Below, piece after piece: positions 11,812 through 56,131 of a stretch of DNA of 64,000 nt (positions within the stretch are counted from its first letter, which is position 1; each line of letters starts with the position of its first letter). The DNA is taken from NCBI GenBank assembly GCA_017397845.1, contig JAFQHU010000011.1:5666-69665 (forward strand), in the 5' to 3' direction. Both the position numbers and the translations under genes were made by a program. Below the pieces are notes generated by a model. The model worked only from the letters and a program-made list of their open reading frames with translations. It was not told the origin of the DNA and ran no database searches. The DNA comes from Clostridia bacterium. GTDB lineage: Bacteria > Bacillota > Clostridia > Oscillospirales > Acutalibacteraceae.

Positions 11812-11925
11812 ATGGAAAATAACGACAATCGCGGCTTTATTGACATTTTCACTGATATGTTCAGAACTTTTATCGACTTCATCGTATTTATGTTTTACGG
11901 TGTATTCAGAGGAGAAACTGAATAA
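11812..11925 (+). CDS. Small Phe-rich peptide (37 aa), below the ORF-track size cut-off
   Basis: ATG at 11812 with SD ACGGAGGAA. Product is MENNDNRGFIDIFTDMFRTFIDFIVFMFYGVFRGETE. It is flanked by its own promoter and a strong terminator. Confidence 0.45.
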   Translation: MENNDNRGFIDIFTDMFRTFIDFIVFMFYGVFRGETE

Positions 11926-12995: not shown

Positions 12996-13237
12996 AATAT
13001 CGTTTAAATACTATGACTGAGATCAAGTAGATTACGGACAAGGCTTTGCAGAGAGGGATTGGTTGCTGAAAAATCCCATCGCCCCCGCAGTCGAATTTCG
13101 CCTCACGAGTTGTCTGTGAAAAGCAGAATGTAGTCGCTGCATTAAAGCGAGCCAAAGCGGCAGAGTTTTTTCTCTGCAATTTGAGTGGTACCGCGGATTA
13201 TATTCGTCTCATTTTTACGATGAGACGATTTTTTTAT
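12996..13237 (+). promoter_or_regulatory. T-box riboswitch, Phe-specific (pheS leader)
   Basis: Conserved T-box sequence AATTTGAGTGGTACCGCG (13178-13195) and an AGAGA box (about 13050). GAAUUUCG at 13093-13100 gives a Phe specifier (UUU or UUC). Terminator stem TCGTCTCAT / ATGAGACGA (13204-13228) plus T7. The element lies directly upstream of pheS. Confidence 0.85.
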
Positions 13238-13259: not shown

Positions 13260-14312
13260 ATGGAAAGTAAAATTTCTCTTGTCAGAGACGAGTTTCTGGC
13301 CGAGCTTACCAAAGCCGAAAACTCTGCCGACCTTGAAGCCATAAGAGTTAAATACTTGGGTAAAAAAGGTCCCGTAACGGAGCTTATGAAGGGTATGAAG
13401 GATCTTTCAAATGAAGAAAAGAAAGCCTTCGGTCAGAAGGTAAACGAGCTTAAGGCTGAGCTTACTGAAAAATTAGCCGAAAAAACTGCATTTTTAAAGG
13501 AACAGGAAATTCTCAGGGAAATCGAGTCAACACCCGATTTTGATATTTCCATGCCTGCCAACTTAGGTGAAGGGTCCTACCATCCTGTTACTCTCGTGCA
13601 GCGTCAGTGTGAACAGATTTTCAAATCTATGGGCTTCGCCGTAGAAGATTATGCGGAAATCGTTTCTGACTATGAATGTTTTGAAGCACTTAACATTCCC
13701 AAGCATCACCCCGCAAGAGATATGCAGGATACCTACTATCTTGATAACGGACAGCTTTTAAAAAGCCACACCTCTGCGGCTCAGAACGCTATTTACAAAA
13801 AATATAAGGATGCACTCATCAATGACGGTGTACCCATCAAAGCTATTTTCCCGGGCCGCTGCTTCAGAAACGAAGCTACCGACGCCTGTCACGAAAACAC
13901 CTTCTTCCAAATGGAAGGCGTTATGGTTGATAAGGACATCTCCATTTCTAACCTTATCTACTTTATGAAAACTATGCTGTCCGAGGTCTTCCAAAAGGAC
14001 CTCAAGGTAAGACTCCGTCCCGGATTTTTCCCCTTTGTTGAGCCGGGCTTTGAGCTTGACATCAGCTGCCTTATCTGTGGCGGTGACGGCTGTCCCTCCT
14101 GTAAGCACAGCGGCTGGCTTGAGCTTTGTCCCTGCGGCATGATTCATCCTGAGGTTCTCAAAGCAGGCGGAATTGATCCTGAAGAATACACAGGCTTTGC
14201 TTTCGGTCTCGGTCTTACACGTTTGGTTATGATGAAATACGGCATCAAAGATATCCGTGACCTTAACAGCGGAAATCTTAAAACACTCACACAATTTACC
14301 GACGACGAATAA
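13260..14312 (+). CDS. pheS: Phenylalanine--tRNA ligase alpha subunit
   Basis: Class II motifs (HPARDMQDTYY, FPGRCFRNE, GFAFGLGLTRL). 350 aa. Confidence 0.95.
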   Translation: MESKISLVRDEFLAELTKAENSADLEAIRVKYLGKKGPVTELMKGMKDLSNEEKKAFGQKVNELKAELTEKLAEKTAFLKEQEILREIESTPDFDISMPANLGEGSYHPVTLVQRQCEQIFKSMGFAVEDYAEIVSDYECFEALNIPKHHPARDMQDTYYLDNGQLLKSHTSAAQNAIYKKYKDALINDGVPIKAIFPGRCFRNEATDACHENTFFQMEGVMVDKDISISNLIYFMKTMLSEVFQKDLKVRLRPGFFPFVEPGFELDISCLICGGDGCPSCKHSGWLELCPCGMIHPEVLKAGGIDPEEYTGFAFGLGLTRLVMMKYGIKDIRDLNSGNLKTLTQFTDDE

Positions 14313-14330
14313 GAGGGGAGGAGGAATATT

Positions 14331-16691
14331 ATGTTTTTATCAATGAACTGGATTTCAGACTTTGTTGATTTCGAAGGTCTCGACAAATTAGAGCTTATCC
14401 GCAGATTTTCTCTTTCAACAGCTGAAGTAGAAAATGAAATTTTCTTTAAAGGCTCCGATATCAGCGGTATCGTTGTAGCGGAAATCAAAAGTGTGGAGGA
14501 TCATCCCGAATCGAAAAAGCTTCATTTACTTAAGGTGGATGCAGGTGACGGACAGCTTACCGATGTTGTTTGCGGTGCTCCCAATGTAAGAGTAGGTATG
14601 AAGACTGCCTTTGCCAAAATCGGCGCTAAAATCGGCGAAATCGACATTACTCCCCGTGCTCTTGCCGGCTATACCTCCTACGGTATGTGCTGCAGTGAAA
14701 AGGAAGTAGGCATCAGTGACGACAATTCAGGTATTATGGACATCAGAGAGAATGTTGCCAACGGTACCGATATCAAGGACCTTTACCAGGTTGAAGATAT
14801 CGTGTTCGAGGTTGACAATAAATCTCTCACAAACCGTCCCGACCTTTGGGGTCACTACGGAATAGCCAGAGAATTTGCCGCCATCGCAGGCAGACCTCTC
14901 AAACCTCTCGAAACAGTTGATCTTTCTGAATATGACGGACTTAAAAAGATTGATATGAAAATCGAAGACAGCCTTTGTCAGAGATATTCCTGTTTGCAGG
15001 TGGAAAACATTACTGAAAATGTTAGCCCCGTGAATATGAAAATCCGTCTTTTCTACTGCGGAATGAGAAGCATCAATCTTCTTGCGGACCTTACAAACTA
15101 CCTTATGCTTGAAATGGGTCAGCCCATGCATGCCTTTGACTCAAGAAAGGTAGAAAAGCTCCGTATCAAACGCTTTGACGAACCCTTCACCTTCACTACC
15201 TTAGACGGTGCAGAAAGAAATATCGACGAAAACACTCTTATGATCTGTAACGGTGACATTCCTGTTGCCATCGCAGGTATTATGGGCGGTCTTGACTCTG
15301 AAATAGTGGAAGATACAACCACTCTTACTCTCGAATCAGCCACTTTTGATGCTGTTTCCATCCGTAAATCCACCGTCCGTCTCGGTCACAGAACCGATGC
15401 CTCCATGCGTTATGAAAAATGCCTTGACCCTGAACTGACGGTTCTTGCCATCGCACGTTTTGTAAAGCTTTTACAGGATATAGACTCAGGTGTGGAGGTT
15501 GTTTCATCGCTCACCGATGAAAGAGCCTTTGAATATGACCAAATCAATCTTACCTTCAATAAAAATTTCGTAGACCGTTATACAGGTATCGAGATTGACA
15601 ATGAAACCATCGTCAAAACTCTTACCTCTCTCGGTTTCGGTGTTGAATTAAGCGGTGAGGATTTCTCCGTTTCGGTTCCCTCATGGAGAGCCACCAAGGA
15701 TGTTACAATGAAGGCTGACATTATCGAAGAAATTACCCGTATTTACGGCTACGATAACTTCGATATTCACACCACAGCCACACCTCTTTATCCCGTTCGT
15801 CCCGCCGCTGAAAAGACAGTTGAGGACAGAATAAAGGATATTTTGGTAAAGAGATTTTCTCTTCACGAAGTACACTCCTATGTGTGGGCTTACTACGATG
15901 AATACAAGGCTTTGGGTATCGAGATTGAAGATAATGTAAAGCTTATGAATGCCACCAACCCCAATATCGAGGTTATTCGTAAATCTATCATCCCCACACA
16001 GCTTTGTCAGCTCAAAATGAACAACACCTTTGCTGCCGATTACGGTATTTTCGAAGTGGGCAGAGTGGTTGAAGGATACAGAGAAGACGGTCTGTGTAAT
16101 GAAAGAAAGAAGCTTGCTGTTTCACTTTTCAGCAAAACGAAATCTGTGGAAGCTCTCTATTTCGAGCTTCGTGATATTCTTCTCACTCTTGCCGCAGACA
16201 TAAAGCATCTTCCTCTCACCTTTAAGACTGCAGAGGCCGCTCACGGCTATGAGCATCCGAAAAATCTCAATACAATTATCTGTGACGGTAAAAAGCTCGG
16301 TAAAATCGGTCTCGTTTATCCCACCGTCCTTAAAAAGATAGACAAAAAGGCAAATATCGTTTGGGCAGAAATCGATGTAACAGATTTTGCTCTTATCGAA
16401 GCAGACAGCATTAAGTATGAAGAGCCCTCCAAGTTCCCCGGTATTGAAATTGACCTTTCCTTCGTAAGCAGCAAGTTCGCACCCATCGGTGAAGCAGTGA
16501 AGAATGCAAATTGCTCTCTTATCAAGGGTATCGATGTGGTTGACACTTATGAGGACGAAAACGGCAAATCAATCACTTCCCGTATTTACTTCGCACATCC
16601 TGAAAAGACTCTTACCAAAGAAGAGGTAATGGATGTGGTAAACGGTATTATTGCCGAGCTTGAAGGCAAGGGAATTGCTCTTAAGAAATAA
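14331..16691 (+). CDS. pheT: Phenylalanine--tRNA ligase beta subunit
   Basis: 786 aa. N-terminal MxxSxxWI...tRNA-binding domain (KLHLLKVDAGDG), followed by B3/4 and B5 regions. Immediately downstream of pheS. Confidence 0.95.
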   Translation: MFLSMNWISDFVDFEGLDKLELIRRFSLSTAEVENEIFFKGSDISGIVVAEIKSVEDHPESKKLHLLKVDAGDGQLTDVVCGAPNVRVGMKTAFAKIGAKIGEIDITPRALAGYTSYGMCCSEKEVGISDDNSGIMDIRENVANGTDIKDLYQVEDIVFEVDNKSLTNRPDLWGHYGIAREFAAIAGRPLKPLETVDLSEYDGLKKIDMKIEDSLCQRYSCLQVENITENVSPVNMKIRLFYCGMRSINLLADLTNYLMLEMGQPMHAFDSRKVEKLRIKRFDEPFTFTTLDGAERNIDENTLMICNGDIPVAIAGIMGGLDSEIVEDTTTLTLESATFDAVSIRKSTVRLGHRTDASMRYEKCLDPELTVLAIARFVKLLQDIDSGVEVVSSLTDERAFEYDQINLTFNKNFVDRYTGIEIDNETIVKTLTSLGFGVELSGEDFSVSVPSWRATKDVTMKADIIEEITRIYGYDNFDIHTTATPLYPVRPAAEKTVEDRIKDILVKRFSLHEVHSYVWAYYDEYKALGIEIEDNVKLMNATNPNIEVIRKSIIPTQLCQLKMNNTFAADYGIFEVGRVVEGYREDGLCNERKKLAVSLFSKTKSVEALYFELRDILLTLAADIKHLPLTFKTAEAAHGYEHPKNLNTIICDGKKLGKIGLVYPTVLKKIDKKANIVWAEIDVTDFALIEADSIKYEEPSKFPGIEIDLSFVSSKFAPIGEAVKNANCSLIKGIDVVDTYEDENGKSITSRIYFAHPEKTLTKEEVMDVVNGIIAELEGKGIALKK

Positions 16692-18411: not shown

Positions 18412-19416
18412 ATGAAAAAAATGCTTTCAGTTTTATTGTCCCTATTGGTAATCACGTCCTGTCTGACTCTCGGTTTTACTGTGTCTGCCGAACAGCTTTC
18501 CGTGGGTAACGATGTGCTTGACGCACGCTTTCTGGACGGTAAGTGTCCCGGTGAGCTGGATTATGTTTATTACAAACCTCAGGCAAAAGCAGGGGTGAAA
18601 TATCCGCTGATGATATGGCTCCACGGTGCCAAATCCGGTGACAGACCGAGAGCACAGCTGGAATGGTACCGTTTCAGCAATTGGGCATCCGATGAATATC
18701 AGGCGAGATTTAAAAATGCAGGAGGTGCATATCTTTTGGCACCGCGTTCGTCAAAGGATATTGCCCATAATTGGTATGACGGAATTTGCTCTGATTTGAA
18801 ATCCACTATAGATTATTTCATTTCGCTGCATCCGGATATCGATACATCACGTGTTTATATCGGCGGTTATTCCACAGGCGGCTCCATGACGTGGCATATG
18901 GTTACAAAGTATCCGGGATTTTTTGCTGCCGCTATCCCGATTGCCTCTCTTTACAATCCTACCTCAGGTGAGCTTGCCGGGCTCAGCAATACATCAATAT
19001 GGATTTTCAGCTGTGACAAAGATTTTTACACTTCTGCCAGAACTTCAGTTGCCGTAAAAACCTTTGATGCTCTAAAGGGAATTACAAACCGTCCTATGGG
19101 CATACGTCACACAGCCTTTACAGAAGCAATATGGGAGTCAAACCGCAAACAGGATGCTTTTGATAAAGAGCATTATATATGGGGAGCCGTAACCAACGAT
19201 ATGTTTATGGACACGGGTGAACAGTTTTATTATTCCCGCACCTATGATGCCACAGGCTCAAAAATTACAATGACAAGACCCGACGGTATAATAAGCTGGC
19301 TGTCTGTTCAGACAAATGATAAAACAGGTGAAGACACAAAACTTTCTTTTTTTGAAAATATTTTTGCTTTTTTCAGAACTCTGATTAATAAGCTGCTTTC
19401 ACTTTTCGGTATATAA
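18412..19416 (+). CDS. Secreted alpha/beta-hydrolase (esterase/lipase-type) with a Phe-rich amphipathic C-terminal tail
   Basis: Signal peptide MKKMLSVLLSLLVITSCLTLGFTVSA, oxyanion-type LMIWLHGA, nucleophile elbow GGYSTGG. C-terminus is LSFFENIFAFFRTLINKLLSLFGI. Confidence 0.7.
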   Translation: MKKMLSVLLSLLVITSCLTLGFTVSAEQLSVGNDVLDARFLDGKCPGELDYVYYKPQAKAGVKYPLMIWLHGAKSGDRPRAQLEWYRFSNWASDEYQARFKNAGGAYLLAPRSSKDIAHNWYDGICSDLKSTIDYFISLHPDIDTSRVYIGGYSTGGSMTWHMVTKYPGFFAAAIPIASLYNPTSGELAGLSNTSIWIFSCDKDFYTSARTSVAVKTFDALKGITNRPMGIRHTAFTEAIWESNRKQDAFDKEHYIWGAVTNDMFMDTGEQFYYSRTYDATGSKITMTRPDGIISWLSVQTNDKTGEDTKLSFFENIFAFFRTLINKLLSLFGI

Positions 19417-20811: not shown

Positions 20812-21156
20812 ATGTCGGAATTTTTAGAACAGATAGAGCATATAGTAGATGCTGCTTTGCCCGATAAGGATGAGCTGATTCATAAAGAGCATCCTAAAAC
20901 GGATTATGTTATGCTTATAGTGCGCAATCTTTTGGTGGGTGTGGCTACGGTATTTTTCGTTCTGTCCTTTTTCTTTGATGATGCACATCATATTCTGAGG
21001 GCGGTAGGCTATTTCAGCGGTGCCGGTGCATATGTTTTTGAATGTTTGCTGCTCACGGATTGCTTTAAAACCAAAGTTCCACATAAGGAGCTGTTTATGA
21101 TTTATTGTCTCGGGCCTCTTTATCTGCTGATGGGACTTGGTTATTTACTGAAATAA
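20812..21156 (+). CDS. Small membrane protein, hypothetical
   Basis: 114 aa with three hydrophobic segments. SD GGAGAAAAAAT precedes the ATG. Confidence 0.5.
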   Translation: MSEFLEQIEHIVDAALPDKDELIHKEHPKTDYVMLIVRNLLVGVATVFFVLSFFFDDAHHILRAVGYFSGAGAYVFECLLLTDCFKTKVPHKELFMIYCLGPLYLLMGLGYLLK

Positions 21157-21170
21157 TGGAGGTAATAACG

Positions 21171-22010
21171 ATGAAAAAAGCAAAAATTTTACTCATAGCC
21201 GCAGGTTGTGTGGCTTTGGTTGCGGCTATAGGTGTTATCGGGTGGAAATCGGCTGTCCGTGATGCATCGAAGGAGCATAATCTGATTACTCTCGATACCT
21301 CTGCTGTGCCTTCTCCCGTAACAAAGTTTACGGAACATGATATACAGCTCAGCGAGGTTAAAATGCATTATGCCGTTTACGGCAAGGAGGGTTATCCTCT
21401 CATTCTCATTCACGGAAACGGCGGGGATAAAAATTCTCTTTCTGAGGCGGCGTCTTATCTTGCCAATGATTACAGGGTTTATGTTCCCGAAAGCCGATGC
21501 CACGGTGAAAGCAGTGACCCCGGTGTGATCTCTTATGACCTTATGGCAAAGGACATAAAGGAATTCTGCGAAGCACTCGGCATCGAAAAGCCTTACATTA
21601 TGGGACACAGCGACGGCGGTATAAATGCACTCACTTTGGCTTATACTTATCCCGAACTCCCGGGTGCTGTTATTTCCTGCGGTGCTAACTCTGTACCTGA
21701 AACCTTCAAGCCTTATTTCACTATAGGTGTAAAGGTGATGAATCTCTTTAAGCCCGACAAGCTCAATGATATGATGCTTACTCTGCCTCAGATGAATGCA
21801 GAGCTTCTCGGTAAGATAACCTGTCCCACATACATCGTGGCAGGGGAAAACGACATTATGTGGCTGAGCGATACTGCCTTCCTTTATGTGAGCACACAGC
21901 CTCACAGCGAAATTGCCATCATAAAGAATGCAAACCATTCCTCCTACATATCCCAGGACGGAAAACAGGCTTATGTTCTGGCAAAGGATTATTTAGATTC
22001 GTTGAAGTAA
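21171..22010 (+). CDS. Membrane-anchored alpha/beta hydrolase
   Basis: Start moved to ATG 21171 (SD GGAGG). N-terminal anchor KILLIAAGCVALVAAIGVIGW, LILIHGNGG, nucleophile elbow GHSDGG. Confidence 0.75.
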   Translation: MKKAKILLIAAGCVALVAAIGVIGWKSAVRDASKEHNLITLDTSAVPSPVTKFTEHDIQLSEVKMHYAVYGKEGYPLILIHGNGGDKNSLSEAASYLANDYRVYVPESRCHGESSDPGVISYDLMAKDIKEFCEALGIEKPYIMGHSDGGINALTLAYTYPELPGAVISCGANSVPETFKPYFTIGVKVMNLFKPDKLNDMMLTLPQMNAELLGKITCPTYIVAGENDIMWLSDTAFLYVSTQPHSEIAIIKNANHSSYISQDGKQAYVLAKDYLDSLK

Positions 22011-44578: not shown

Positions 44579-47500
44579 ATGTTAGTAACAAAAAGAGAAG
44601 TTAAGCAAACTTCTAAAAAGCTTTTAAGTGTGTTACTTGCGGTCATTATGATTATGACCAGCATGAGCGTATGCTTCGGCACTGTATCCTTTGCCGCAGG
44701 TAAGGATGTGGATGTAACTGCACTCGCTGACGCACTTAAGTATGACAGCATTAAAAATGCATCATTCTCCGGCTCGGCCAATAACTATACAGTCAGTGAC
44801 CCTGACGGTAAAGTTCTTGCGGCAGTAGATGCTTATTTTGCAGTAGTAGATGCTATGGCAAATAAGACACCTACAAATCAGAACCCTTCTACAGGTACAT
44901 CCAGTACCAATCAGACTGGTGAATCATCTGACAAAACCTACAGAACCATCAACCATCTTAATGCCAGAGTAAAAACTCTTCTCAGCAATAAGATGGGCGG
45001 TGACTACACTACATATAATGTGGATGCTTTCATCACAGGTCTTTTGGCAGGATCAACAGTCAGTGAAGGAACCTCAAAGAAAACTGTAGGTCCCGCTACA
45101 TCAAACAACACCGCAAAACCTGCTACACCTCTTGCTGCTGCTCCCGATGTGAAGCTTACGGTTATGATGGAAAGTGCTGTTACGGGATACACTCTTGATA
45201 CTCTTCCCGACAGCGTAGTTACATCAAAGACCTACACAGTAAAGCACGCTAATACAAACTATGATTATAAGTTTACTTATACAGCAGCTACAAAGGATAG
45301 TTGCGGTAACAGTAACAATGATCAGAAGTATCAGCATGACTATTGGTTCTACTATAACTACAGCTCATATTCAGCAGAAGACGGCGCTTCTAAGTCTACA
45401 CAGACTATCAAAAACACACAGTCTACTCTGGAGACTTACGCTGACTATTTCTCAATGGGTATGGATGCGCTTTATGCTGTTCCTGCCTCCACTCTTGACA
45501 CAGTAAGCACTGCTGTGAAAAATGCTAAAGCAAATGTCGTCAGCGGCTTTGGTGCAGGTGTTTACTCTCACTTCTTCTCATCTTATAATGTGGAGAAGCT
45601 TACAGGTGACATCATTATCGCTAAAGAAATCCAGGTTCTTGCTCCCAAACTTCTCAAAGCTTACGAGGAGATGGAAAAGGGCTACGATGATATCATTAAC
45701 GATAAAGACGCTCTTAACACCCTCGCACAGACTGTGAAGACAGCTATGGATGCTTATGATGCAGCCTCTGCAGATGCTAAGACCTATGTTACAGAGGCAG
45801 GCTTCATCCGCACTGAAGCAGCAACCTTCTACAGCAAGGTTCTCCGTGAAATCGAGCTTATCGAGCTTCGTGAGCTTGTTGAAGAAATTACAGAAGGTAT
45901 CAAACCTTATGCTTTCTATACTGAAGACGGTATCGATGAAGGTACAGTAACATCAAAGATGATCGGTGATGCTCTTACTGCTGTTAGCGGTTATCAGACC
46001 CGTCTTGCAAAGTACAATACTGCAGATGTTGATGACATTAATCCCGGTATACGTGGCGGACTTTTTGATCTTAAGAATGTTCTTAATACTCTCAGCGTAG
46101 CTGCCGGCTATAATGATCAGTTCAGTGCACAGTATGCAAAATTTGCTTCTGAAATCTTCTCCGTAACCGATGCAAACGGTGACATCGGAACTCTTCTTTC
46201 CGCTCTTCAGAGCTATGACGGCTGGTACACAGGTCTTAAGTCTCTTATCGCAGAAATGAAATCAGTTCTCGGTGAAGAGCTCGCTGACAAGCTCTTTGAT
46301 GACCTTAACGATGTTATGACAGAGCGTATGGATGATGCTTATGTAGCACTCAATGCTCTTCTTGAAGCACAGATTGACTATGCTTACGATCTCTTTAAGG
46401 CATACACAAGTGCCTATGGCGAAAAGGTTAGCATGGCAACTGTTTCCGAGTATAGAGCCATGCAAGCTTCGATTGGTCTTATAAATGCTGATGCTTACAG
46501 CTTGCTTAACGGCACAGCCAACTTTGAAATTTCCGATGAAGCAGTGGCTAAGTACGAAGAAATGCAGAAGGATTTCCCTGAATATGAGGAATTCCTTGAC
46601 AGTCACGGCTTCTCGACCTATCAGCAGACATTTATGCCTGACCTCGAGAGACCCGACACAGAAAAGGATATCGCCCGTGAAAACGAGGATGGTGTTTACA
46701 AGACATCCGATGCAGAAATCGAAAAGATAATCAACCTTCTCGATAATCTTCTTCAGAACGATGCTGTAAAGGAACTTCTCGGTTCTCTTATTAATAAGGA
46801 TGAGGAAACAGGTGAGCCTACAGGTGAGCCCTTTGATATTGCAGACCTTATTTCCGGTCTTCTCGAAGATGTGGTTTATACTGACAGTCTTATCAACACC
46901 ATCGTTCAGTATGTATATCCTCTCGTTTGTAAGGAATTTGCAAAGGTTTGGGCAGGTCTTCCCTCCACATTCACAGCATTAGGTGTTGAAACGGGTGTTT
47001 CTCTTGCTCCTACAGCCGATGTTAAGGATTGTCCTCTTTATCTCGACGATGTAGAAAAAGCTATCGGATCAGTAGGTGTTTATCTCTCTCCCGTTAAGCT
47101 CGCTGAAAATCTTAAGAAAAATAACGATTATAAAGGCTATACTCAGGTAATTGCAAAGCTCGAATCTGCTACTACTAAGGCAGTTTATAACCTCAACGGT
47201 GAAGGTGATGCTGACGATACTTTCCAAAATCCCTGGGAAGATGCAAATCTTTTCACTAATGTTTATGATGAAGTAACAGGTGAACAGGTATTCAATGACG
47301 ACGGTACACCCAAGCAGGTCTACGACCTTAATTGGGGTGTAGATGAAGCTACCGATAAGAAAGCTGCATTTATCAACGCAGCTTGTGCAGCTCTTTCGGG
47401 TCTTGAACCTCTTCTTATGGCTATCATCGCTGATACCACTTATGTTAACCCAAATACAACAGGCACAGATGCCCGCGGATCAAAAATCGGTACAGGTAAG

Positions 47501-50500
47501 GGTACAGCACAGGTAAAGGGTCTTGGTTTCATTCCCATCACACTTACTCTTAATATCGATCCCATCACTCTTGTTCTTAACTTCCAGGGTAACGATGGTT
47601 GGGACAACGCTCTTGCTCCCATTTTTGAAGCTCTCGGCCTCACCAATATTCCTCATAGCCATGAGCTTAATACCACCAGAAAGCTTCTTGAAAAAGGTCT
47701 TTTTGCTATGATTGACCAGCTTATCAGTAAGGTAGCAGAAGCTCCCGTAACCTTCATTCTTGAGGCTCTTCCGAATCTTGCTTATGCTCTTGAGGGTGGT
47801 CTTGTTGAGCCTCTTCTGAGTATGCTTAAGACAGAAATCAGCTACTATGCTGACGCTGCATACACAGGTACTCTTGGTGATAATCAACTTGCAGCAAGTG
47901 TTCTTAAGGAAGCCATGAAATCAGAAGAACCTATCAAGATTAACATCGGTGAAATGATTAACCTTGAGGATATGGGTCTCGACATCAGCTCCTTCCAGGC
48001 TATTTGGGATATGATCGCAGGCGGCGTTGAGCTTCTCGCAGGTATGGAAGCTCCCGATGCAGGTAAGATCGCAACTATGGGTAAACTCGTAGAGAGAAAC
48101 ACCAACAGAAGCGCTAAAACCTATAACCACGGCTCAGCAGACAAAGCTTACCACATCGAAGCTAACAAGGCAGACGTTCTTGTATATCTTCTTAAGTATG
48201 TTCTCGGCAGCGGTCTTATCGACGGACTCGTAGAGAATCCCGAAGGTATCATAGCTGACCTTCTTACAAATCTCAATGAAAATCCCGATGTAATTCTTGC
48301 TGCGGTTGTCGAGCTCTTCAATCAGAAGGAATATGACACTCTCAGAAACTTCGAATGGTTCGAAGGCTATATTAACGGTGAATCCGTGATAGGTAACTCA
48401 GCTAACGCTATTTACCTTAATCCTGAAAACGATTGGACCGAAGAGAAGGCACAGTATCTTTATGAAAACCTTGATTCTATCGTATCTGCTGTCCTTACTA
48501 TGGCTAAGCTCGACCTCGATAAGGAAACAGAGGAGCTTGAAACACTCGGTGATTTCATCGGCGGTGCTATCGGCGGTCTTCTCAGTGACAAGACACTCAC
48601 AGCTCTTGCTAAGCTTCTCGGAAGCCTCGCTGACATTAACAGCCTCATCGCAGGCGAAGATGCTGCAGAGCCTCTTCCAGTTGATGTTGCAGCTCTCCTC
48701 ACAGAATTCCTCGGCATTGATTTGAGCGTTTACGCTGACTATGCAGACATCGCAGAAGATGAAATCGTTGACTTCGGCGTAGATGCAGGTACAGTTACCT
48801 TTGCTGAGGCTCTCGCTGATATGCTCGCACCTCTTTCTCCCGTTCTTGACTTCATTCTCGCAGGTGAAAACCTCGTTATCACCGTTGAAGACGAAACAGT
48901 AGAGCTTGTAGGTTATGACGGCTATAACAACGCTATCATTCCTATTCTTGAAGCTCTCGGCTGTGATGTTGCAGTAAATCCCGAAAACGCACTTGAAGCT
49001 GTTATCACAGCTCTTATGGGCAAGATTGAAGCTATCACAAAGTCAGAAACACTCATCAAGGATATCATCGATCTTCTTCCCGGTGTATTCTATTTCATCG
49101 CATCTAAGGGCCTTTCAGTTTCCGTAAGAAACCTTCTCCAGCCCGTATATGTAATCCTAGATACCGTCAGACCTGTATTTGATCTTGACCTCAATGCTAC
49201 CATCAATGATCTTCTTCCCGAAGACTTCGGCATTATGCTCAATATCGATGATATCGGTCTTGACCTCGTATTCGATCTTCTTAAGAAGTTCGTTCCCGAA
49301 CTTGACCTTTCAGGTCTTAAGGATGTTATCTATGACATCTGCTACAATGTAGGCACTGAATATGAATCCGTTTCCACACTCCAGGATAATTGGAAGAAGG
49401 GTGCATTCGGCGATAATTTCAGCGCTGCTGACCTTCTCACAGTAGTTCTTTCATTCGTTCTCGAATGGGCTACCGTCGAAGAAAACGGAGAAAAGCTCGA
49501 CGAAATGCTCGGCACAGAAGATCTCATCGCAAATATCGGTAAGGTATTTGAGGATGTAGAAATTGCATACGGTACACCGAATTGGATGTATTGGTTCGCA
49601 ACAGAGGAAGAATTCAATTCCTATGTGGAGGGTAACACAGAGCTTCCCAATACACTTCTTTCTCTCACATATCCTAACGATTGGTCAGAGGAGGCAGCTG
49701 CTTATATTGCTGACAACCTTGCTTCTCTCGTTGATATGGTGATTTCTCTCATCGAAATCGACGGCACCAAGTACGCTTCGGTTGCTGAACTTATTGATGC
49801 GAAGCTCGATGTATTCAATGCTGAAACAATCAACAGCATCATTGGTCTTATCGCAGACCTTCTTAAGGATGTAGACGATAATCTCCTTTCAGTAGGTTAT
49901 CTTCTCGATGTAGATGTAGTAGGTCTTAAGAACTACACATGCACAGCAGAAATCACTGACGTCAAGTCCTTTACTCAGGAACTCGCAAACATTCTTACAA
50001 AATACGCACACGGTCTCGTTAACTGGCTCTTCTTTGGTGATGACTTCAGATTTGCTAAGAAGTCTGACAAGACAGATACTATTGTAATCAACGGTGGCGA
50101 AGGCTATGAAAAGGGTCTTGCTCTCGTTCTCGAAGCACTCGGCTGTGACCTTCCCGAAAAGGCAACAACCGAAACAGTTCTTCTTGCTCTTGCTGCAAGA
50201 GTTGAAGAAATCCTTGCTTCTCCCGTAAACGAAGTTATAGACCTTCTTCCCAATCTCGTTTACTTCCTTAACGCTGACGGTGCATCCGTAGCCGTTAATA
50301 ACCTTCTCGCTCCCGTTTATGCACTTCTCGATAAGCTCGCAGTGCTTGGCGTTGAGCTTGATCTTGCAACTCTTCTCGGCTTCGACCTTAAGTATCTCTC
50401 ACTTGCAGATATCCTTGCTCTCGTTAAGGATAAGACAGGTCTTGACATCTCTGCAGCTGAAGAAATTCTCGTAAATCTCTGCTTCGGTAAAATTGAACAG

Positions 50501-53461
50501 GCAGAATATACTTACAAAATGGTTGCAGAAAGAAAAGATGTTGTAACAGTTGTTCTTACCACAGCACTTCTTCTTGTTAAAGATGAGGACTTTGCAGCCA
50601 AACTCGAAGAAATGATGGGAACAGAACTTATTTCTGCGATTGTTGAAGTATTTGAATCCGCTCCCGTAACCTATAAGACACCTGATTGGTATGCTCTCGA
50701 TGAAAGCGATATCGATTATGATAACGAAACAGTCGGCGTAATCAAGTATGCTATCACTTATCCTAACAACTGGACGGAAGAAAGTGCCAAGTATCTTGCT
50801 GACAATCTCGTTTCCGTCGGAGATATGGTTGCAGGCATTATCGACAGCAACTATGATTCTCTCGGTGCACTTCTCGCTGACAAGGTAAATATCTACACGG
50901 CAGATACTCTTAAGGCTATTCAGAATCTTCTCGGTGATCTCATCGGCGGCCTTGATGAAAATCTTAAAGAACTTGTAAATGTAGGTCTCGGCGCTGCAGA
51001 TGCACTCCTCGGTGCAGATGTTCAGGGTCTTCTGGATTACGATGTATCCTCCGTAAATGATAAGGCATCCTTTATAGCTGCCCTTACCGGCATGCTTATG
51101 GAGGTTGAGGGTCTTGTTGACTGGCTTCTTCTCGGTCAAAGCTACGAGCTCTTTGTTGATGACGTAAATGCAAACGGTGTATATGATGAAGGCGAAGCAA
51201 TCATCACACTCAATGGCGGTCACGGTTATGCTGAAGGTCTTGCACTTGTACTCGAAGCACTTGGTGTCGAAAATCTTCCCGATGTTTATGCGATGGAAGA
51301 AATCGATACCGAAGCAGTGGTAGGTGACGTTCTTAACGCTGTATTTGACAGAGTTGACGCTGTCTTCAATAACCCCGTGGAAGAAGTATTCGAAATTCTT
51401 CCCAATGTTCTCTATTTCATCAATGCAAACGGACTTACCGTAGCAATAGAAAACCTCATCGGTGCCGTAAACGCACTTCTCATCAAGCTTGAAGGCTTAG
51501 GTGTTGAGCTTGATATTGCATCTCTTGTAAACTTCAGTGAAATTCTCGGTGTTGAAACTGAGCTTGCTCTTGATAACATCACAATAGAAGCCGTGATTGA
51601 TCTCGTTGCTGAGCTTACAGGTCTTAACCTTGATGCGGTTGCAGATGTACTTGTCGGCTTTGCACTTGGCAGAGTTGCCGCTTATGATTCAGTAAGCAGT
51701 GCAGACATCACAGCGAAAATGTATTATCACGATGATTTCGCCAAATATGATATGATCACCGTGCTTGCTACAGTAGCCATTATCATCCTTACAGATGAAG
51801 CTAATGCTGAAAAGGTTAAGGATATGCTCGGTGAAGATATTTATCAGGTAGTACTCAATCTTGTAAATATGGGCGAAGTTGAAATTCAGGAATTCAATTG
51901 GATGTTCACAAGTGAAGAAACCGGCGGTAACAGAGTTGGCGAAACCTTCTCTGCACTCGAAAGCTCCGAAGTCTTCGCAGGACATTCCTACGGTCCCACC
52001 TTCACAGAGGAAATGGCTCAGTACATCGCTGATAATTTTGGCAAATTTGTAGATAATGTTATTTACCTTCTCGGTATTGACATTAACAGCGACGGAAAGG
52101 CAGAGACTAACCTTACAGAAACCATTAACAGCTTGCTTAACGGTTCGCTTTACAATAGTGAAAATGTAATTGCTGTCCGTGATGCTCTTGCGGGTGTGCT
52201 TGCAAATCTTACAGAGCTTCAGGTTAACGGCAAGGTAGTAGGCGGTCTTATCGCTGACGTTCTCAAAACAACAGGTATCGCAGATATCGCAGCAGTAGCT
52301 GAAGTTGAAATTCCCGAATTCAAAGAAGACAGAGCACAGTTTGTTGCCTTTCTCTGCGATGTTCTTGAACCTCTTTACGGTATACTCAGATACGTTCTTG
52401 CTGACGAAGATTTCACCTTCTTCGTAAATGCAGAAAAGAGCGATGCGATCACTCTTAAGGGTGCAGAAGGCTATGCATACGGTATCCTTCCTCTTCTCGA
52501 AACTCTCGAATGTGAAGGCATACTTGCTCCCGCTGATTACTATGCTGCTGTAGAGGCTGACGGTGATGTGCTTCTCACATCCATCCTTAATCCTCTTCTT
52601 GACAGAGTAGATGTAATTCTTGAAGCTCCTGCAGATGAAATTCTTGCGATGCTTCCGAACCTTATCTACTTCATCAATTCAAACGGTGTTGACACAGTAG
52701 TCAAAAACACACTTAATGCAGTCTATGCACTTCTTGCTGCTATTGAGCCGATTGCCAAGATTGATCTTTATGAGCTTATCGGTGTAGATCTTGCCGTAAT
52801 TGATTTCGAATGGCTTCTCGATAAGCTTCTCGAAGTAATCAAAGATGCTACAGGCTACGAATTCACTGTCGAAGATATCGACTATATCTTGGAGCTTACT
52901 GTCGGTAAGCTTGAAGCTTACGATTCACTTAACGGAAAGACCGCTTATAAGATGGTTTATTCAGAGGGTGAAATCGGTGACTCAAAAGAGCTTGTGGTTG
53001 TCGTACTCAGACTCATAGTAACCTTTATCGCAAATGAGAACAACGCTGAGCTTCTCGTAGGTCTTCTCAGAGATAATCTCGGTATGTCTGCAGAGGTAGA
53101 GGAATTTGTTCGCGGACTTCTCACCGTTTTGGTTGAATGTATTTCCGGAACTAAGCTCGGTGTCGATGTTGCACTTTCCACTCTTTACTATGTATTCTTC
53201 GGTATAGATAAGGGTGTAGGAGAAGCAGTCGGCGGTACAAAAACACTTGATCAGCTTTGGAGAGATGCTTTGTCCGACCTCAGAAGAGAAAATGAGGGCG
53301 TGGCAGACATGATTGAGGATATTCTCGGTTGGGATATCTTTGAGGATGTTATTTCTCCCGACGGCATCGCTCCCAACGGACTTATCGCATTCTTCCAAAA
53401 GATTATATCCTGGTTCCAGACAATCGTAGCATGGTTCAAAAGCTTCTTTAAAATAGCTTAA
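44579..53461 (+). CDS. Giant secreted acidic repeat protein, 2,960 aa, function unknown
   Basis: Uninterrupted 8.9-kb ORF with SD AGGAGG (44567-44572). Signal-peptide-like N-terminus KKLLSVLLAVIMIMTSMSVCFGTVSFAAG, five internal ~375-440-aa modules, and the amphipathic C-terminus LIAFFQKIISWFQTIVAWFKSFFKIA. Confidence 0.85.
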   Translation: MLVTKREVKQTSKKLLSVLLAVIMIMTSMSVCFGTVSFAAGKDVDVTALADALKYDSIKNASFSGSANNYTVSDPDGKVLAAVDAYFAVVDAMANKTPTNQNPSTGTSSTNQTGESSDKTYRTINHLNARVKTLLSNKMGGDYTTYNVDAFITGLLAGSTVSEGTSKKTVGPATSNNTAKPATPLAAAPDVKLTVMMESAVTGYTLDTLPDSVVTSKTYTVKHANTNYDYKFTYTAATKDSCGNSNNDQKYQHDYWFYYNYSSYSAEDGASKSTQTIKNTQSTLETYADYFSMGMDALYAVPASTLDTVSTAVKNAKANVVSGFGAGVYSHFFSSYNVEKLTGDIIIAKEIQVLAPKLLKAYEEMEKGYDDIINDKDALNTLAQTVKTAMDAYDAASADAKTYVTEAGFIRTEAATFYSKVLREIELIELRELVEEITEGIKPYAFYTEDGIDEGTVTSKMIGDALTAVSGYQTRLAKYNTADVDDINPGIRGGLFDLKNVLNTLSVAAGYNDQFSAQYAKFASEIFSVTDANGDIGTLLSALQSYDGWYTGLKSLIAEMKSVLGEELADKLFDDLNDVMTERMDDAYVALNALLEAQIDYAYDLFKAYTSAYGEKVSMATVSEYRAMQASIGLINADAYSLLNGTANFEISDEAVAKYEEMQKDFPEYEEFLDSHGFSTYQQTFMPDLERPDTEKDIARENEDGVYKTSDAEIEKIINLLDNLLQNDAVKELLGSLINKDEETGEPTGEPFDIADLISGLLEDVVYTDSLINTIVQYVYPLVCKEFAKVWAGLPSTFTALGVETGVSLAPTADVKDCPLYLDDVEKAIGSVGVYLSPVKLAENLKKNNDYKGYTQVIAKLESATTKAVYNLNGEGDADDTFQNPWEDANLFTNVYDEVTGEQVFNDDGTPKQVYDLNWGVDEATDKKAAFINAACAALSGLEPLLMAIIADTTYVNPNTTGTDARGSKIGTGKGTAQVKGLGFIPITLTLNIDPITLVLNFQGNDGWDNALAPIFEALGLTNIPHSHELNTTRKLLEKGLFAMIDQLISKVAEAPVTFILEALPNLAYALEGGLVEPLLSMLKTEISYYADAAYTGTLGDNQLAASVLKEAMKSEEPIKINIGEMINLEDMGLDISSFQAIWDMIAGGVELLAGMEAPDAGKIATMGKLVERNTNRSAKTYNHGSADKAYHIEANKADVLVYLLKYVLGSGLIDGLVENPEGIIADLLTNLNENPDVILAAVVELFNQKEYDTLRNFEWFEGYINGESVIGNSANAIYLNPENDWTEEKAQYLYENLDSIVSAVLTMAKLDLDKETEELETLGDFIGGAIGGLLSDKTLTALAKLLGSLADINSLIAGEDAAEPLPVDVAALLTEFLGIDLSVYADYADIAEDEIVDFGVDAGTVTFAEALADMLAPLSPVLDFILAGENLVITVEDETVELVGYDGYNNAIIPILEALGCDVAVNPENALEAVITALMGKIEAITKSETLIKDIIDLLPGVFYFIASKGLSVSVRNLLQPVYVILDTVRPVFDLDLNATINDLLPEDFGIMLNIDDIGLDLVFDLLKKFVPELDLSGLKDVIYDICYNVGTEYESVSTLQDNWKKGAFGDNFSAADLLTVVLSFVLEWATVEENGEKLDEMLGTEDLIANIGKVFEDVEIAYGTPNWMYWFATEEEFNSYVEGNTELPNTLLSLTYPNDWSEEAAAYIADNLASLVDMVISLIEIDGTKYASVAELIDAKLDVFNAETINSIIGLIADLLKDVDDNLLSVGYLLDVDVVGLKNYTCTAEITDVKSFTQELANILTKYAHGLVNWLFFGDDFRFAKKSDKTDTIVINGGEGYEKGLALVLEALGCDLPEKATTETVLLALAARVEEILASPVNEVIDLLPNLVYFLNADGASVAVNNLLAPVYALLDKLAVLGVELDLATLLGFDLKYLSLADILALVKDKTGLDISAAEEILVNLCFGKIEQAEYTYKMVAERKDVVTVVLTTALLLVKDEDFAAKLEEMMGTELISAIVEVFESAPVTYKTPDWYALDESDIDYDNETVGVIKYAITYPNNWTEESAKYLADNLVSVGDMVAGIIDSNYDSLGALLADKVNIYTADTLKAIQNLLGDLIGGLDENLKELVNVGLGAADALLGADVQGLLDYDVSSVNDKASFIAALTGMLMEVEGLVDWLLLGQSYELFVDDVNANGVYDEGEAIITLNGGHGYAEGLALVLEALGVENLPDVYAMEEIDTEAVVGDVLNAVFDRVDAVFNNPVEEVFEILPNVLYFINANGLTVAIENLIGAVNALLIKLEGLGVELDIASLVNFSEILGVETELALDNITIEAVIDLVAELTGLNLDAVADVLVGFALGRVAAYDSVSSADITAKMYYHDDFAKYDMITVLATVAIIILTDEANAEKVKDMLGEDIYQVVLNLVNMGEVEIQEFNWMFTSEETGGNRVGETFSALESSEVFAGHSYGPTFTEEMAQYIADNFGKFVDNVIYLLGIDINSDGKAETNLTETINSLLNGSLYNSENVIAVRDALAGVLANLTELQVNGKVVGGLIADVLKTTGIADIAAVAEVEIPEFKEDRAQFVAFLCDVLEPLYGILRYVLADEDFTFFVNAEKSDAITLKGAEGYAYGILPLLETLECEGILAPADYYAAVEADGDVLLTSILNPLLDRVDVILEAPADEILAMLPNLIYFINSNGVDTVVKNTLNAVYALLAAIEPIAKIDLYELIGVDLAVIDFEWLLDKLLEVIKDATGYEFTVEDIDYILELTVGKLEAYDSLNGKTAYKMVYSEGEIGDSKELVVVVLRLIVTFIANENNAELLVGLLRDNLGMSAEVEEFVRGLLTVLVECISGTKLGVDVALSTLYYVFFGIDKGVGEAVGGTKTLDQLWRDALSDLRRENEGVADMIEDILGWDIFEDVISPDGIAPNGLIAFFQKIISWFQTIVAWFKSFFKIA
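47588..53461 (+). repeat. Five divergent protein-level tandem modules inside the giant ORF
   Basis: Anchor motifs begin at nt 47588, 48911, 50093, 51215 and 52460: GNDGWDNALAPIFEALG, GYDGYNNAIIPILEALG, GGEGYEKGLALVLEALG, GGHGYAEGLALVLEALG and GAEGYAYGILPLLETLE. Confidence 0.75.
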
Positions 53462-54109: not shown

Positions 54110-54649
54110 TTAACCGAAATATCTGTTAAGCAGACCTTCGAATGCCTTACCGTGTCTTGCTTCGTCTCTTGCCATTTCGTGAACGGTGTCGTGGATAGCG
54201 TCGAGACCGAGATCTTTAGCCATTTTAGCAAGATCGAATTTGCCCTGAGTAGCACCGTTTTCGGCGGCAACTCTCATTTCAAGGTTTTTCTTTGTGCTGT
54301 CGGTTACAACCTCACCGAGAAGCTCTGCAAACTTTGCAGCGTGCTCTGCTTCTTCATAAGCTGCCTTTTCCCAATAGAGACCGATTTCGGGGTAGCCTTC
54401 TCTGTGAGCCACTCTTGCCATAGCGAGATACATACCGACTTCTGAGCATTCGCCGTTGAAGTTGTCACGAAGACCCATGATGATTTCTTCGGGAACGTTT
54501 GCTTCTTTGCCTACGCCGAGGATGTGTTCAGCTGCCCATGTCATACCTGCGCCTTCTTCTCTTTCTTTCATCTTAGCTTTGCAGATGGGGCATACATCGA
54601 TTTTTTCGTCACTTTCGTAACCGCATACGGGACAATAATACTTTTTCAT
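54110..54649 (-). CDS. Reverse rubrerythrin (N-terminal rubredoxin-like CxxC pairs + ferritin-like di-iron domain)
   Basis: Start moved to ATG at 54649 (SD GGAGGAAAG). [11 protein letters not shown]...CPIC is followed by di-iron ligand motifs (E...EEAEH, E...DEARH). Confidence 0.9.
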
Positions 54650-54669
54650 TTTTCTTTCCTCCGAAATAA

Positions 54670-55059
54670 TTATTTTTTGTTTGAGCTTTTGCAATCGGGG
54701 CAGATGCCGTAGAACATCAATGAATGAGATGTTACAGTGCCATCAAAGTCGCGGGGGAGTGAATCAAGATTTACTCCCGGATCGATATCCAAATCAATAA
54801 CCTGTCTGCAGTTGATGCAGGTCAGGTGATAATGACCGTGAGTGTGCCCGTCAAATCTGTCGCTGTCACCGGTGGGGATTTTCAGGATTAAACCTTCGCT
54901 TTCTAAAAGCTTCAGGTTCCTGTACACTGTGGCAAGACTGATAGATGGGATTACCTCTTTTACTGCGAGGAAGATATCCTCCGCGGTCGGATGATCGTAC
55001 CGTGACTGTAAATTTGCCAGCACCGCATCCCGTTGCTTACTGGATTTAAGTGTTGACAT
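54670..55059 (-). CDS. Fur family transcriptional regulator (PerR-like by context)
   Basis: Start moved to ATG at 55059. It has a winged helix ([12 protein letters not shown]), [11 protein letters not shown] and a C-terminal CPDC pair. It lies upstream of rubrerythrin and rubredoxin. Confidence 0.85.
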
Positions 55060-55090
55060 AATGTCCGCTCCAATCGTTTGCATTTAATAA

Positions 55091-55537: not shown

Positions 55538-55573
55538 GTTTGTCGTAAATATTTATTTACGGAGGAAAAAACA

Positions 55574-56131
55574 ATGAAAAAGGTAGTGAAAAACTTATTG
55601 CTTGTAGCAGTTATGGTTATGCTGTGTATGACTGTGGCTGTCAGTGCGAGTGCACTTGATGAAACAGGTCAGTGCGGTGAAACTTATGTTGATGATTATA
55701 CAGATAAACTCGACCACGAGTATAAATCAGTAATCACTACCCCTGCAACTCACCTTACCGAGGGTGTTGAAACCTTCACCTGTTCTTGCGGTGACAGCTA
55801 TACAAAGCCTGTCGCAAAGCTTAAAGGTCACACCTACAGTACTTCCGTAACGGCTCCCACCTGTACAGCGCAGGGTTATACAACTTATATCTGCGAATGT
55901 GGAGACAGTTATATCAGTGATTTTGTTTCAGAAACAGGACATAAGGATGAAAATAATGACGGCATATGTGATGGCTGTGGTATAAAGCTTAAAACAGACA
56001 GCAATAAAGACAACTGCACCTGTATGTGTCACAAATCCGGCTTGATGGGAATCATATGGAAAATCATCCGTTTTTTCTATAAGCTCTTTAAAATCAATCC
56101 TGTCTGCGCTTGCGGTGCAGCACACTATTAA
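55574..56131 (+). CDS. Small secreted Cys-rich protein with an amphipathic aromatic tail and terminal CxCGxxHY
   Basis: Start moved to ATG 55574 (SD ACGGAGGAA). Signal peptide KNLLLVAVMVMLCMTVAVSASA, two T(F/Y)xCxCGDSY units, DENNDGICDGCG, and C-terminus CTCMCHKSGLMGIIWKIIRFFYKLFKINPVCACGAAHY. Confidence 0.6.
   Translation: MKKVVKNLLLVAVMVMLCMTVAVSASALDETGQCGETYVDDYTDKLDHEYKSVITTPATHLTEGVETFTCSCGDSYTKPVAKLKGHTYSTSVTAPTCTAQGYTTYICECGDSYISDFVSETGHKDENNDGICDGCGIKLKTDSNKDNCTCMCHKSGLMGIIWKIIRFFYKLFKINPVCACGAAHY

Follow-up and report, generated by a model that had tools for sequence, protein, structure and literature searches.

How adhesins and enzymes are retained at the surface of the abundant and mostly uncultured Oscillospiraceae and Acutalibacteraceae is poorly known, and current predictors recognise only LPXTG motifs, lipoboxes, transmembrane segments and a few wall-binding domains. 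The question is raised by a 64,000-nucleotide stretch of DNA from an Acutalibacteraceae member (Clostridia bacterium, assembly GCA_017397845.1, contig JAFQHU010000011.1, positions 5,666 to 69,665; hereafter the window, in whose coordinates positions are given below), in which three exported proteins share a Phe-rich, positively charged type of amphipathic helix at their C-termini: a giant secreted protein, an esterase and a small Cys-rich repeat protein. Housekeeping proteins, assigned through 90%-identity clusters, mark the organism as an uncultured Clostridia/Oscillospiraceae metagenome-assembled genome, and the contigs derive from metagenome assemblies. An earlier note on this DNA had described these endings as similar amphipathic tails acting as either a membrane anchor or a sorting tag. 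The likeness proved stronger than the shared flavour described there, as the three tails have a register-exact core, F-h-x-K-I-x-x-F-F-x-x-L-h (where h is hydrophobic). The tail is interpreted here, with a probability of roughly 0.55, as a portable C-terminal in-plane membrane anchor of Sec-exported proteins in gut Clostridia of the Oscillospiraceae/Acutalibacteraceae type.

Three exported proteins with a common C-terminal tail

All three proteins are encoded on the positive strand, and translation reproduced exactly the tail sequences and coordinates quoted in the earlier note. The giant protein (44579 to 53461, 2960 amino acids by translation) begins with a signal peptide, MLVTKREVKQTSKKLLSVLLAVIMIMTSMSVCFGTVSFA (44579 to 44695), predicted from the sequence by a heuristic and with a putative cleavage site before AG. 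Its simple tail, NGLIAFFQKIISWFQTIVAWFKSFFKIA (53375 to 53458), has the core motif FFQKIISWFQTIV, and the C-terminal end of the protein reads APNGLIAFFQKIISWFQTIVAWFKSFFKIA. Two profiles were built, A1 and A4, the latter being the tail training alignment; the giant tail scores 23.2 bits with the tail hidden Markov model (HMM) in a match that ends two residues before the C-terminus, this sequence being itself a member of A4. The protein is very acidic (isoelectric point 4.1, 12% Leu, 10% Ala), and a Pfam scan identified no domain in it. Multiple alignments of homologues P0308 to P0311 point to at least four internal repeats of approximately 370 to 400 amino acids each, with P0308 aligning at about residues 1402, 1789, 2109 and 2570; self-BLAST of the giant protein gave no off-diagonal rows. 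The homologues are all unannotated and derive from metagenomes or metagenome-assembled genomes (MAGs), and one of them (L023:2637-7529, 25-28% identity) likewise ends in a tail.

The second host is a secreted alpha/beta-hydrolase of 334 amino acids (18412 to 19416) that is Peptidase_S9- or PHB-depolymerase-like on the evidence of family scans, homologues and an AlphaFold2 model. It carries a signal peptide (18412 to 18489) with the site FTVSA/EQ, ends in the simple tail LSFFENIFAFFRTLINKLLSLFGI (19342 to 19413), and its C-terminal end reads KLSFFENIFAFFRTLINKLLSLFGI. A lipoprotein reading of this esterase, based on the string ITSC at residues 14 to 17, was rejected, as the Cys is not conserved in homologues P0047 and P0051 whereas the ASA/EQ site is. 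The third host is the small, secreted Cys-rich protein (55571 to 56131, likely start ATG at 55574), with a signal peptide extending to 55654 (AVSASA/LD), followed by two to three beta-hairpin repeats of the form H…TCTxxGYTTYTCxCGDSY and then by a module containing the tail; the protein ends in SGLMGIIWKIIRFFYKLFKINPVCACGAAHY (56036 to 56128), its C-terminal end reading CTCMCHKSGLMGIIWKIIRFFYKLFKINPVCACGAAHY.

Each of the three genes has a stop codon followed by a terminator-like hairpin, and the tails are therefore not the product of read-through. All three hosts have an N-terminal signal peptide with an AxA-type cleavage site and are, by the heuristic used, the only such proteins in the window. 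As the earlier note had observed, the SH3b protein (1799 to 3364) and the other hydrolase (21105 to 22010) have no tail; both are held by N-terminal segments. For the tails of the three proteins Pfam and NCBIfam offer no model, the NCBIfam scan having been run at E <= 1 for these and at E <= 0.01 for the ten module hosts described below.

Conservation and exchange of the simple tail

Well over 100 homologues preserve the tail in their protein sequence. Of the 39 homologues aligned in the esterase family, 38 retain it in register after a variable polar linker, at identities as low as 34%; most of these tails read xSFFxKIxxFFxxIxxxhxxLFx, and a few of the most distant (e.g., P0097 and P0145) are degenerate. 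The exception, P0144 (36% identity), has a Cys/His module at the position of the tail, VCHCDCHSSKGFTRFIWSIKCFFYRIFNSSMKVCACGKNHW. In the giant family, 16 homologues of the C-terminal region (32-61% identity) end in APNGFIAFFQKIxxFFxxIxxFFKNLF(SFGK), P0308 (38% identity) carries the module instead of the simple tail, and the distant homologues P0309 and P0311 (21-31% identity) have a classical transmembrane helix with a basic tail at the C-terminus. Both of these unrelated host families keep the pattern, down to about 33% identity, as their sequences diverge, and the tail is exchanged within families both for the module and for transmembrane anchors.

The esterase and giant tails align without gaps to give the consensus xxFFxKIxxFFxxIxxxFxxLFxx, and the helix of the module, FIWKILRFFYKLF, fits the simple-tail core. 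The link between module and simple tail was drawn from the alignments of these two families and their swapped homologues. A profile made from esterase tails only matches the C-termini of unrelated large proteins at loci L061 (E = 5e-5), L023 (E = 1e-4) and L003 (E = 0.015), picks up approximately 45 module helices weakly but in register, and matches the tail of the window's giant protein at only E = 0.35. The tail class is accordingly defined partly by motif and partly by physical chemistry. A profile of the module helix alone, which is too narrow, found no simple tails in other proteins.

Some N-terminal signal peptides of this lineage are also matched by the tail profile (L069:1671-2618, L015:10832-11857 and L005:121-1146; e.g., MFEKIIAFFMAVIAFILGIFG). 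Phe/Ile-rich segments that interact with membranes are thus favoured throughout the lineage, and they give rise to false positives whichever profile of the tail is used.

A Cys/His-clamped form of the tail

The ending of the Cys-rich protein does hold a tail, as the earlier note had it, but as part of a distinct and larger module (56015 to 56128, positive strand) whose upstream CTCMCH had been overlooked. Alignment, profile search and AlphaFold2 modelling define this form as CTCMCH-KSG-LMGIIWKIIRFFYKLFKI-NPV-CACGAAHY, a conserved unit of 38 to 45 residues in which a tail-type helix lies between CxCxCH and CxCGxxH. Fourteen aligned endings follow the pattern C-x-[CH]-x-C-H-K-[STD]-G-(helix)-N-[PK]-x-C-x-C-G-x-x-H-Y with C, C, H, G, K, C, C, G and H invariant; in module numbering, the residues C7, C11, H12, C37, C39 and H43 never vary, and position 9 holds either C or H. 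The spacer from CH to CxCG is 24 residues long in 78 of 79 distinct copies.

The N-terminal architectures to which this ending is joined are many and varied among homologues of the Cys-rich protein. When one genome per species was scanned, 219 copies were confirmed, of which the best 80 come nearly all from Acutalibacteraceae, Oscillospiraceae or 'Clostridia bacterium' gut and rumen MAGs, with several copies per genome. A search of 1.84 billion cluster representatives with the module profile returned 2,489 at E <= 1e-3 and 1,582 at E <= 1e-10, and in 149 of the best 150 the match ends on the last residue of the protein. Module-bearing proteins range from 55 to 4,270 amino acids in length. They have signal peptides and domains typical of the cell surface, among them BspA leucine-rich repeats, M23 peptidase, class-3 lipase, FN3, ricin-type lectin, VWA and Listeria-Bacteroides repeats; a stalk rich in Pro, Glu, Asp and Thr often lies upstream, and Asp, Pro and Glu are moderately enriched in the 25 residues ahead of the module relative to all signal-peptide proteins. 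Scans of ten module hosts against Pfam and NCBIfam matched nothing over the module; a sequence search of the PDB with the Cys-rich family gave no match, and a fold search of the PDB with the Cys-rich model gave nothing below E = 0.26.

A plausible role for the Cys/His flanks of the module is to bind a metal, for instance zinc. The CxCG knuckle in the second half of the module is similar to that of the Cys-rich repeats that precede it, which suggests that the module could be a Cys-rich repeat whose loop has taken up the helix. The repeat itself (55700 to 56010, positive strand; also in homologues P0002 to P0045) reads H-x-Y-x(3-5)-[VI]-T-x-P-T-C-T-x-x-G-Y-T-T-Y-T-C-x-C-G-D-S-Y, is widespread among Clostridia surface proteins and is modelled confidently by AlphaFold2 as beta-hairpins, with predicted local distance difference test (pLDDT) scores of 89-96; Pfam and NCBIfam contain no model of it, and the PDB no relative.

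One Acutalibacteraceae MAG has a tandem array of five genes (L070:10193-16842; products of 141 to 709 amino acids), each ending in a divergent variant of the Cys/His module, some of which extend past the final His; the array has the look of paralogues that multiplied and diverged locally. In the window, the region immediately upstream of the Cys-rich gene contains, on the other strand (54110 to 55083), a rubrerythrin-like gene and a Fur/PerR-like regulator, so assigned from their sequence only, which may be relevant if the module binds metal.

Enrichment on exported proteins and gene neighbourhood

Enrichment of the tail on exported proteins, which the earlier note had named as a test of its proposal, was borne out. 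It was assessed in 81 sources (the window and the 80 loci holding the best 80 of the 219 module copies) comprising 1009 open reading frames (ORFs), with ORFs bearing the module left out of the enrichment counts. The criterion was an 18-residue window within the last 30 residues with no Pro, at least 10 hydrophobic residues and a hydrophobic moment of at least 0.5. A first criterion, requiring at least four aromatic residues or a mean hydrophobicity of at least 0.15, was dropped because it missed many obvious tails, and this cleaner moment statistic was adopted for that reason. Such endings occur in 14 of 114 signal-peptide proteins compared to 6 of 422 ORFs without a signal peptide or transmembrane segment (Fisher p = 2.4e-6), and in 3 of 570 random internal windows of the same signal-peptide proteins (p = 2.8e-9). 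The module itself is borne by 85 ORFs in the 81 sources, and a signal peptide is predicted by the same heuristic calls in 72 of these. Tail-bearing proteins are large, with a median length of 600-780 amino acids versus 341.

No processing enzyme or receptor gene co-occurs with the module in the neighbourhood of the 80 loci, which is weak evidence given that sortases are often encoded elsewhere, and no conserved cleavage motif lies upstream of the helix. The commonest neighbours of module genes, within about 120 bp, are XRE-type helix-turn-helix regulators (66 amino acids in 8 loci and 110 amino acids in 6), which may reflect dedicated regulation or mobile cassettes.

Physical chemistry and predicted structure

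Hydrophobic moments were computed at 100 degrees for the best 18-residue window, and the tail family was represented by 36 simple tails and 79 module helices. The three tails of the window have moments of 0.53 (giant), 0.53 and 0.66 with a mean hydrophobicity of 0.33-0.38, and the 36 family tails have a mean moment of 0.62 compared to 0.33 when shuffled, bearing out the amphipathicity proposed earlier. Periodicity peaks sharply at 100 degrees, the hydrophobic positions cover an arc of about 160 degrees, and Phe accounts for 25% of tail residues. The net charge of simple tails averages +2.1 (range 0 to +4) and is never negative, and that of the module spacer averages +4.4 and reaches +6. In heptad terms the hydrophobic residues occupy positions a, b and e, the FFxxIxx heptad occurring three times in the tail.

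The earlier judgement that the tails are too polar for a transmembrane anchor and lack LPXTG also held. At a threshold of 1.6 for the Kyte-Doolittle 19-mer average, transmembrane-grade hydropathy is reached by none of the 36 simple tails and by 1 of the 79 module helices. The tail average has a mean of 0.97 and a maximum of 1.58, and the longest uncharged run averages 7.6 residues, compared to values of 2.1-2.8 and uncharged runs of 18-23 residues in the genuine anchors of P0309 and P0311. The tails thus lack the properties of a classical C-terminal transmembrane (tail) anchor. LPxT[GAN] is absent from the last 45 residues of all 72 module-bearing and all 17 simple-tail signal-peptide proteins. 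Nor do the proteins have a conserved lipobox, [LVI][ASTVI][GAS]C, where the signal peptide ends; lipobox-like strings are present in 3 of the 72 module proteins.

The AlphaFold2 model of the esterase (mean pLDDT 90.9) has an isolated terminal helix at residues 313-331 (block-mean pLDDT about 72-85), preceded by a low-confidence linker at residues 301-312. In the model of the Cys-rich protein a helix spans residues 157-172 (block-mean pLDDT about 62-75), with Cys/His flanks of low confidence.

Comparison with known membrane-binding helices

The closest known parallel is found in the low-molecular-weight penicillin-binding proteins (PBP5/DacA, PBP6/DacC and DacD), which are Sec-exported with a cleaved signal peptide and whose last 18-24 or so residues form an amphipathic helix that retains them on the outer side of the cytoplasmic membrane. 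The exported E. coli enzyme PBP5 needs for its function a C-terminal amphipathic helix of 18 residues, by which it is tethered to the inner membrane on the outer face (PMC2909392). The PBP5 anchor, taken from the K-12 genome sequence, follows the pattern FFxKIxx-h-h-xx-h and has a moment of 0.50. The tails share with PBP5 and PBP6 the cleavable signal peptide of a Sec-exported host, predicted heuristically in the three window proteins and in the 72 module ORFs noted above, and a helix of about 18-24 residues at the extreme C-terminus with a high moment and hydrophobicity below transmembrane grade; they do not share sequence homology or an S11 DD-carboxypeptidase host. Unlike the PBP5 anchor, the tail occurs in monoderm Clostridia, on many unrelated families (the esterase, the giant repeat protein, leucine-rich-repeat adhesins, M23 peptidase, lipase and lectin), where it acts as a shuffled module with its own conserved motif and exists in a Cys/His-clamped version.

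The in-plane insertion proposed for the tail resembles that of the short C-terminal amphipathic helices of MinD and FtsA and the N-terminal helices of Arf and Arl proteins, although these lie on cytoplasmic-face proteins without signal peptides and have no sequence relationship to the tail. The sole match of the tail profile in the PDB is the N-terminal helix of Arl8A, IALFNKLLDWFKALF, which has a membrane-binding role, at a non-significant E of 0.49. Phenol-soluble-modulin-like and antimicrobial peptides are likewise cationic, Phe/Lys-rich helices of about 20 residues with a moment similar to that of the tails; these, however, are free peptides with their own export, whereas the tail is the covalent end of large exported proteins. 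A full-text literature search found no paper with these sequence strings or with such an amphipathic C-terminal anchor in Ruminococcus or Clostridia. By analogy, the tail may apply the principle of PBP5 in a form that would be new as a widespread, portable and motif-bearing module on many surface-protein families of gut Clostridia; the Cys/His-clamped derivative has no described counterpart.

The proposed in-plane anchor and its alternatives

In the proposed mechanism, cleavage of the N-terminal signal peptide would otherwise release the protein, and the last 20-25 residues would fold as an amphipathic helix whose Phe/Ile/Leu/Trp face inserts parallel to the outer leaflet of the cytoplasmic membrane while the opposite face, bearing Lys, Arg, Asn and Gln, contacts anionic lipid head groups. 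A flexible linker, acidic or rich in Pro, Glu, Asp and Thr, would allow the passenger domain to reach into or through the wall. The helix would act in two forms, bare in the giant protein and the esterase and clamped by CxCxCH and CxCGxxH in the Cys-rich protein. From the interfacial chemistry of the helix, its occurrence solely at the very end of proteins that signal-peptide cleavage would otherwise set free, and the linker or stalk ahead of it, we infer membrane binding in an in-plane orientation. This anchor is further favoured by the replacement of the tail by a transmembrane anchor within a family and by the lack of a cleavage motif or neighbouring processing enzyme. Of the earlier proposal of an anchor or a sorting tag, the common part, a C-terminal localisation element of exported proteins, is upheld by enrichment, conservation and exchange, and the anchor is preferred to the tag.

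Several points weigh against this interpretation. Conservation is stricter than amphipathicity needs, with Phe preferred and the K, the N and the FFKNLF ending kept, and in the module even polar-face residues are conserved; as this exceeds what amphipathicity requires, recognition by a partner is possible. The enrichment statistics depend on heuristic gene and signal-peptide calls in loci that were picked for the module and that, including related genomes, are not fully independent. The best match of the tail HMM in DacA is the anchor itself, but at 5.7 bits and E = 0.89 it is not significant, and the comparison with PBP5 is for this reason one of analogy and not of homology. Simple tails include some acidic residues, the threefold FFxxIxx heptad of hydrophobic residues is also compatible with a coiled coil, and the proposed clamp is tentative, the module flanks having been modelled by AlphaFold2 with low confidence.

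The main rival, tentative and less probable than the anchor, is a sorting or recognition tag, in which a dedicated envelope receptor or a processing or attaching enzyme would read the helix, together with the Cys/His cluster where there is one, by a logic likened to that of sortase, exosortase and cohesin-dockerin docking. The recurrence of FFxKIxxFFxxIxxFFKNLF on unrelated hosts, beyond simple amphipathicity, and the near-invariant polar residues and fixed 24-residue spacer of the module speak for such a tag. Like LPXTG, PEP-CTERM, GlyGly-CTERM and Firmicu-CTERM signals, the tail is a short C-terminal element on signal-peptide proteins, present in many copies per genome and restricted in lineage, and like sortase and exosortase signals it follows a Pro-rich or acidic stalk on surface proteins. 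Unlike the signals of sortase, exosortase, rhombosortase and archaeosortase, however, it lacks the tripartite architecture of motif, transmembrane helix and basic cluster; NCBIfam sorting-domain models gave no match over the tail in 13 proteins, no cleavage motif is shared, and the 80 loci adjoin no conserved enzyme or receptor gene, with the limit on that evidence given above. LPETG substrates and C-terminal transmembrane/basic anchors are found in an Acutalibacteraceae genome with five module loci (L035:14265-16751, the LPETG sortase substrates at L035:14265-15683), and the tail thus coexists with sortase anchoring in this lineage rather than replacing it. Equally tentative is an undescribed localisation system of the Oscillospirales, a counterpart of sortase and LPXTG in which a metal-stabilised or covalently modified tail would be read by a dedicated envelope partner, in its clamped and its bare form, and would display hundreds of surface proteins instead of acting as a passive lipid-binding helix.

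Oligomerisation, whereby the three FFxxIxx heptads would bring secreted proteins together, as multimers or as bundles at the surface, through a short coiled coil or helical bundle rich in Phe, is improbable. The a, b, e placement of hydrophobic residues over three heptads fits it, as do E/K pairs at i and i+4 in some tails, but three heptads are short for a coiled coil, the tail is carried alike by enzymes, adhesins and tiny proteins, a transmembrane anchor takes its place in distant homologues, and a net charge of zero or above, up to +6 in the module, would be expected to cause repulsion in a homo-oligomer. Oligomerisation and membrane binding are compatible with each other. Non-covalent binding to a wall polymer (peptidoglycan, teichoic acid or polysaccharide) or to the S-layer, in the manner of GW, LysM, CWB2 and SLH modules, would suit hosts that are surface proteins of the kind that usually bear such modules, as well as an aromatic-rich tail; it is decidedly improbable, as the known modules are folded domains or repeats of at least 40 amino acids whereas the tail is one amphipathic helix of 20 residues, Pfam wall-binding models give no match, and the hydrophobic face is too greasy for exposure to solvent. 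The probability is close to negligible that the tails are a chance or compositional artefact of AT-rich gene ends, or conventional C-terminal transmembrane anchors. The DNA of the esterase tail has a GC content of 26% compared to 43% across the gene, and spurious ORFs in the window also end in aromatic-rich peptides, but the protein-level conservation described above, the 2,489 module representatives, the enrichment on signal-peptide proteins and a hydropathy far below that of transmembrane segments rule this reading out.

Other features of the window

A free-standing ORF of 37 amino acids (11812 to 11925, positive strand; MENNDNRGFIDIFTDMFRTFIDFIVFMFYGVFRGETE), which the earlier note had tentatively related to the tails, proved to be a separate gene. 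It is preceded by TTGACT- and TAAAAT-like hexamers and by a GGAGG ribosome-binding site 7 nt upstream, and is followed by a hairpin terminator; an identical sequence is found in the same context on 13 metagenome contigs. The product is hydrophobic and acidic, with a moment of 0.72, and is possibly a small membrane peptide. The proposal that it is a free tail was rejected on its own promoter-like hexamers, ribosome-binding site and terminator and on its acidic character; it is not linked to the basic tails because it is acidic and without a signal peptide, and the tail profile does not match it. The window also contains a T-box leader (Rfam RF00230, 115 bits) at 13004 to 13214 on the positive strand, upstream of the pheS/pheT operon (13260 to 16691).

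Significance for gut Clostridia

Proteins bearing the tail are currently annotated as freely secreted or hypothetical. Its reach extends to the 2,489 representatives of the clamped form alone and to approximately one in eight of the other signal-peptide proteins in the sampled loci. If the tail is an anchor, the simple profiles A1 and A4 would become available to annotation, localisation predictors could adopt a new rule, and a compact surface-display tag would become available for anaerobic Firmicutes. The predicted surface proteome of these bacteria would change, and the in-plane anchor of the PBP5 style, known mainly from DD-carboxypeptidases, would prove to be a general modular device.

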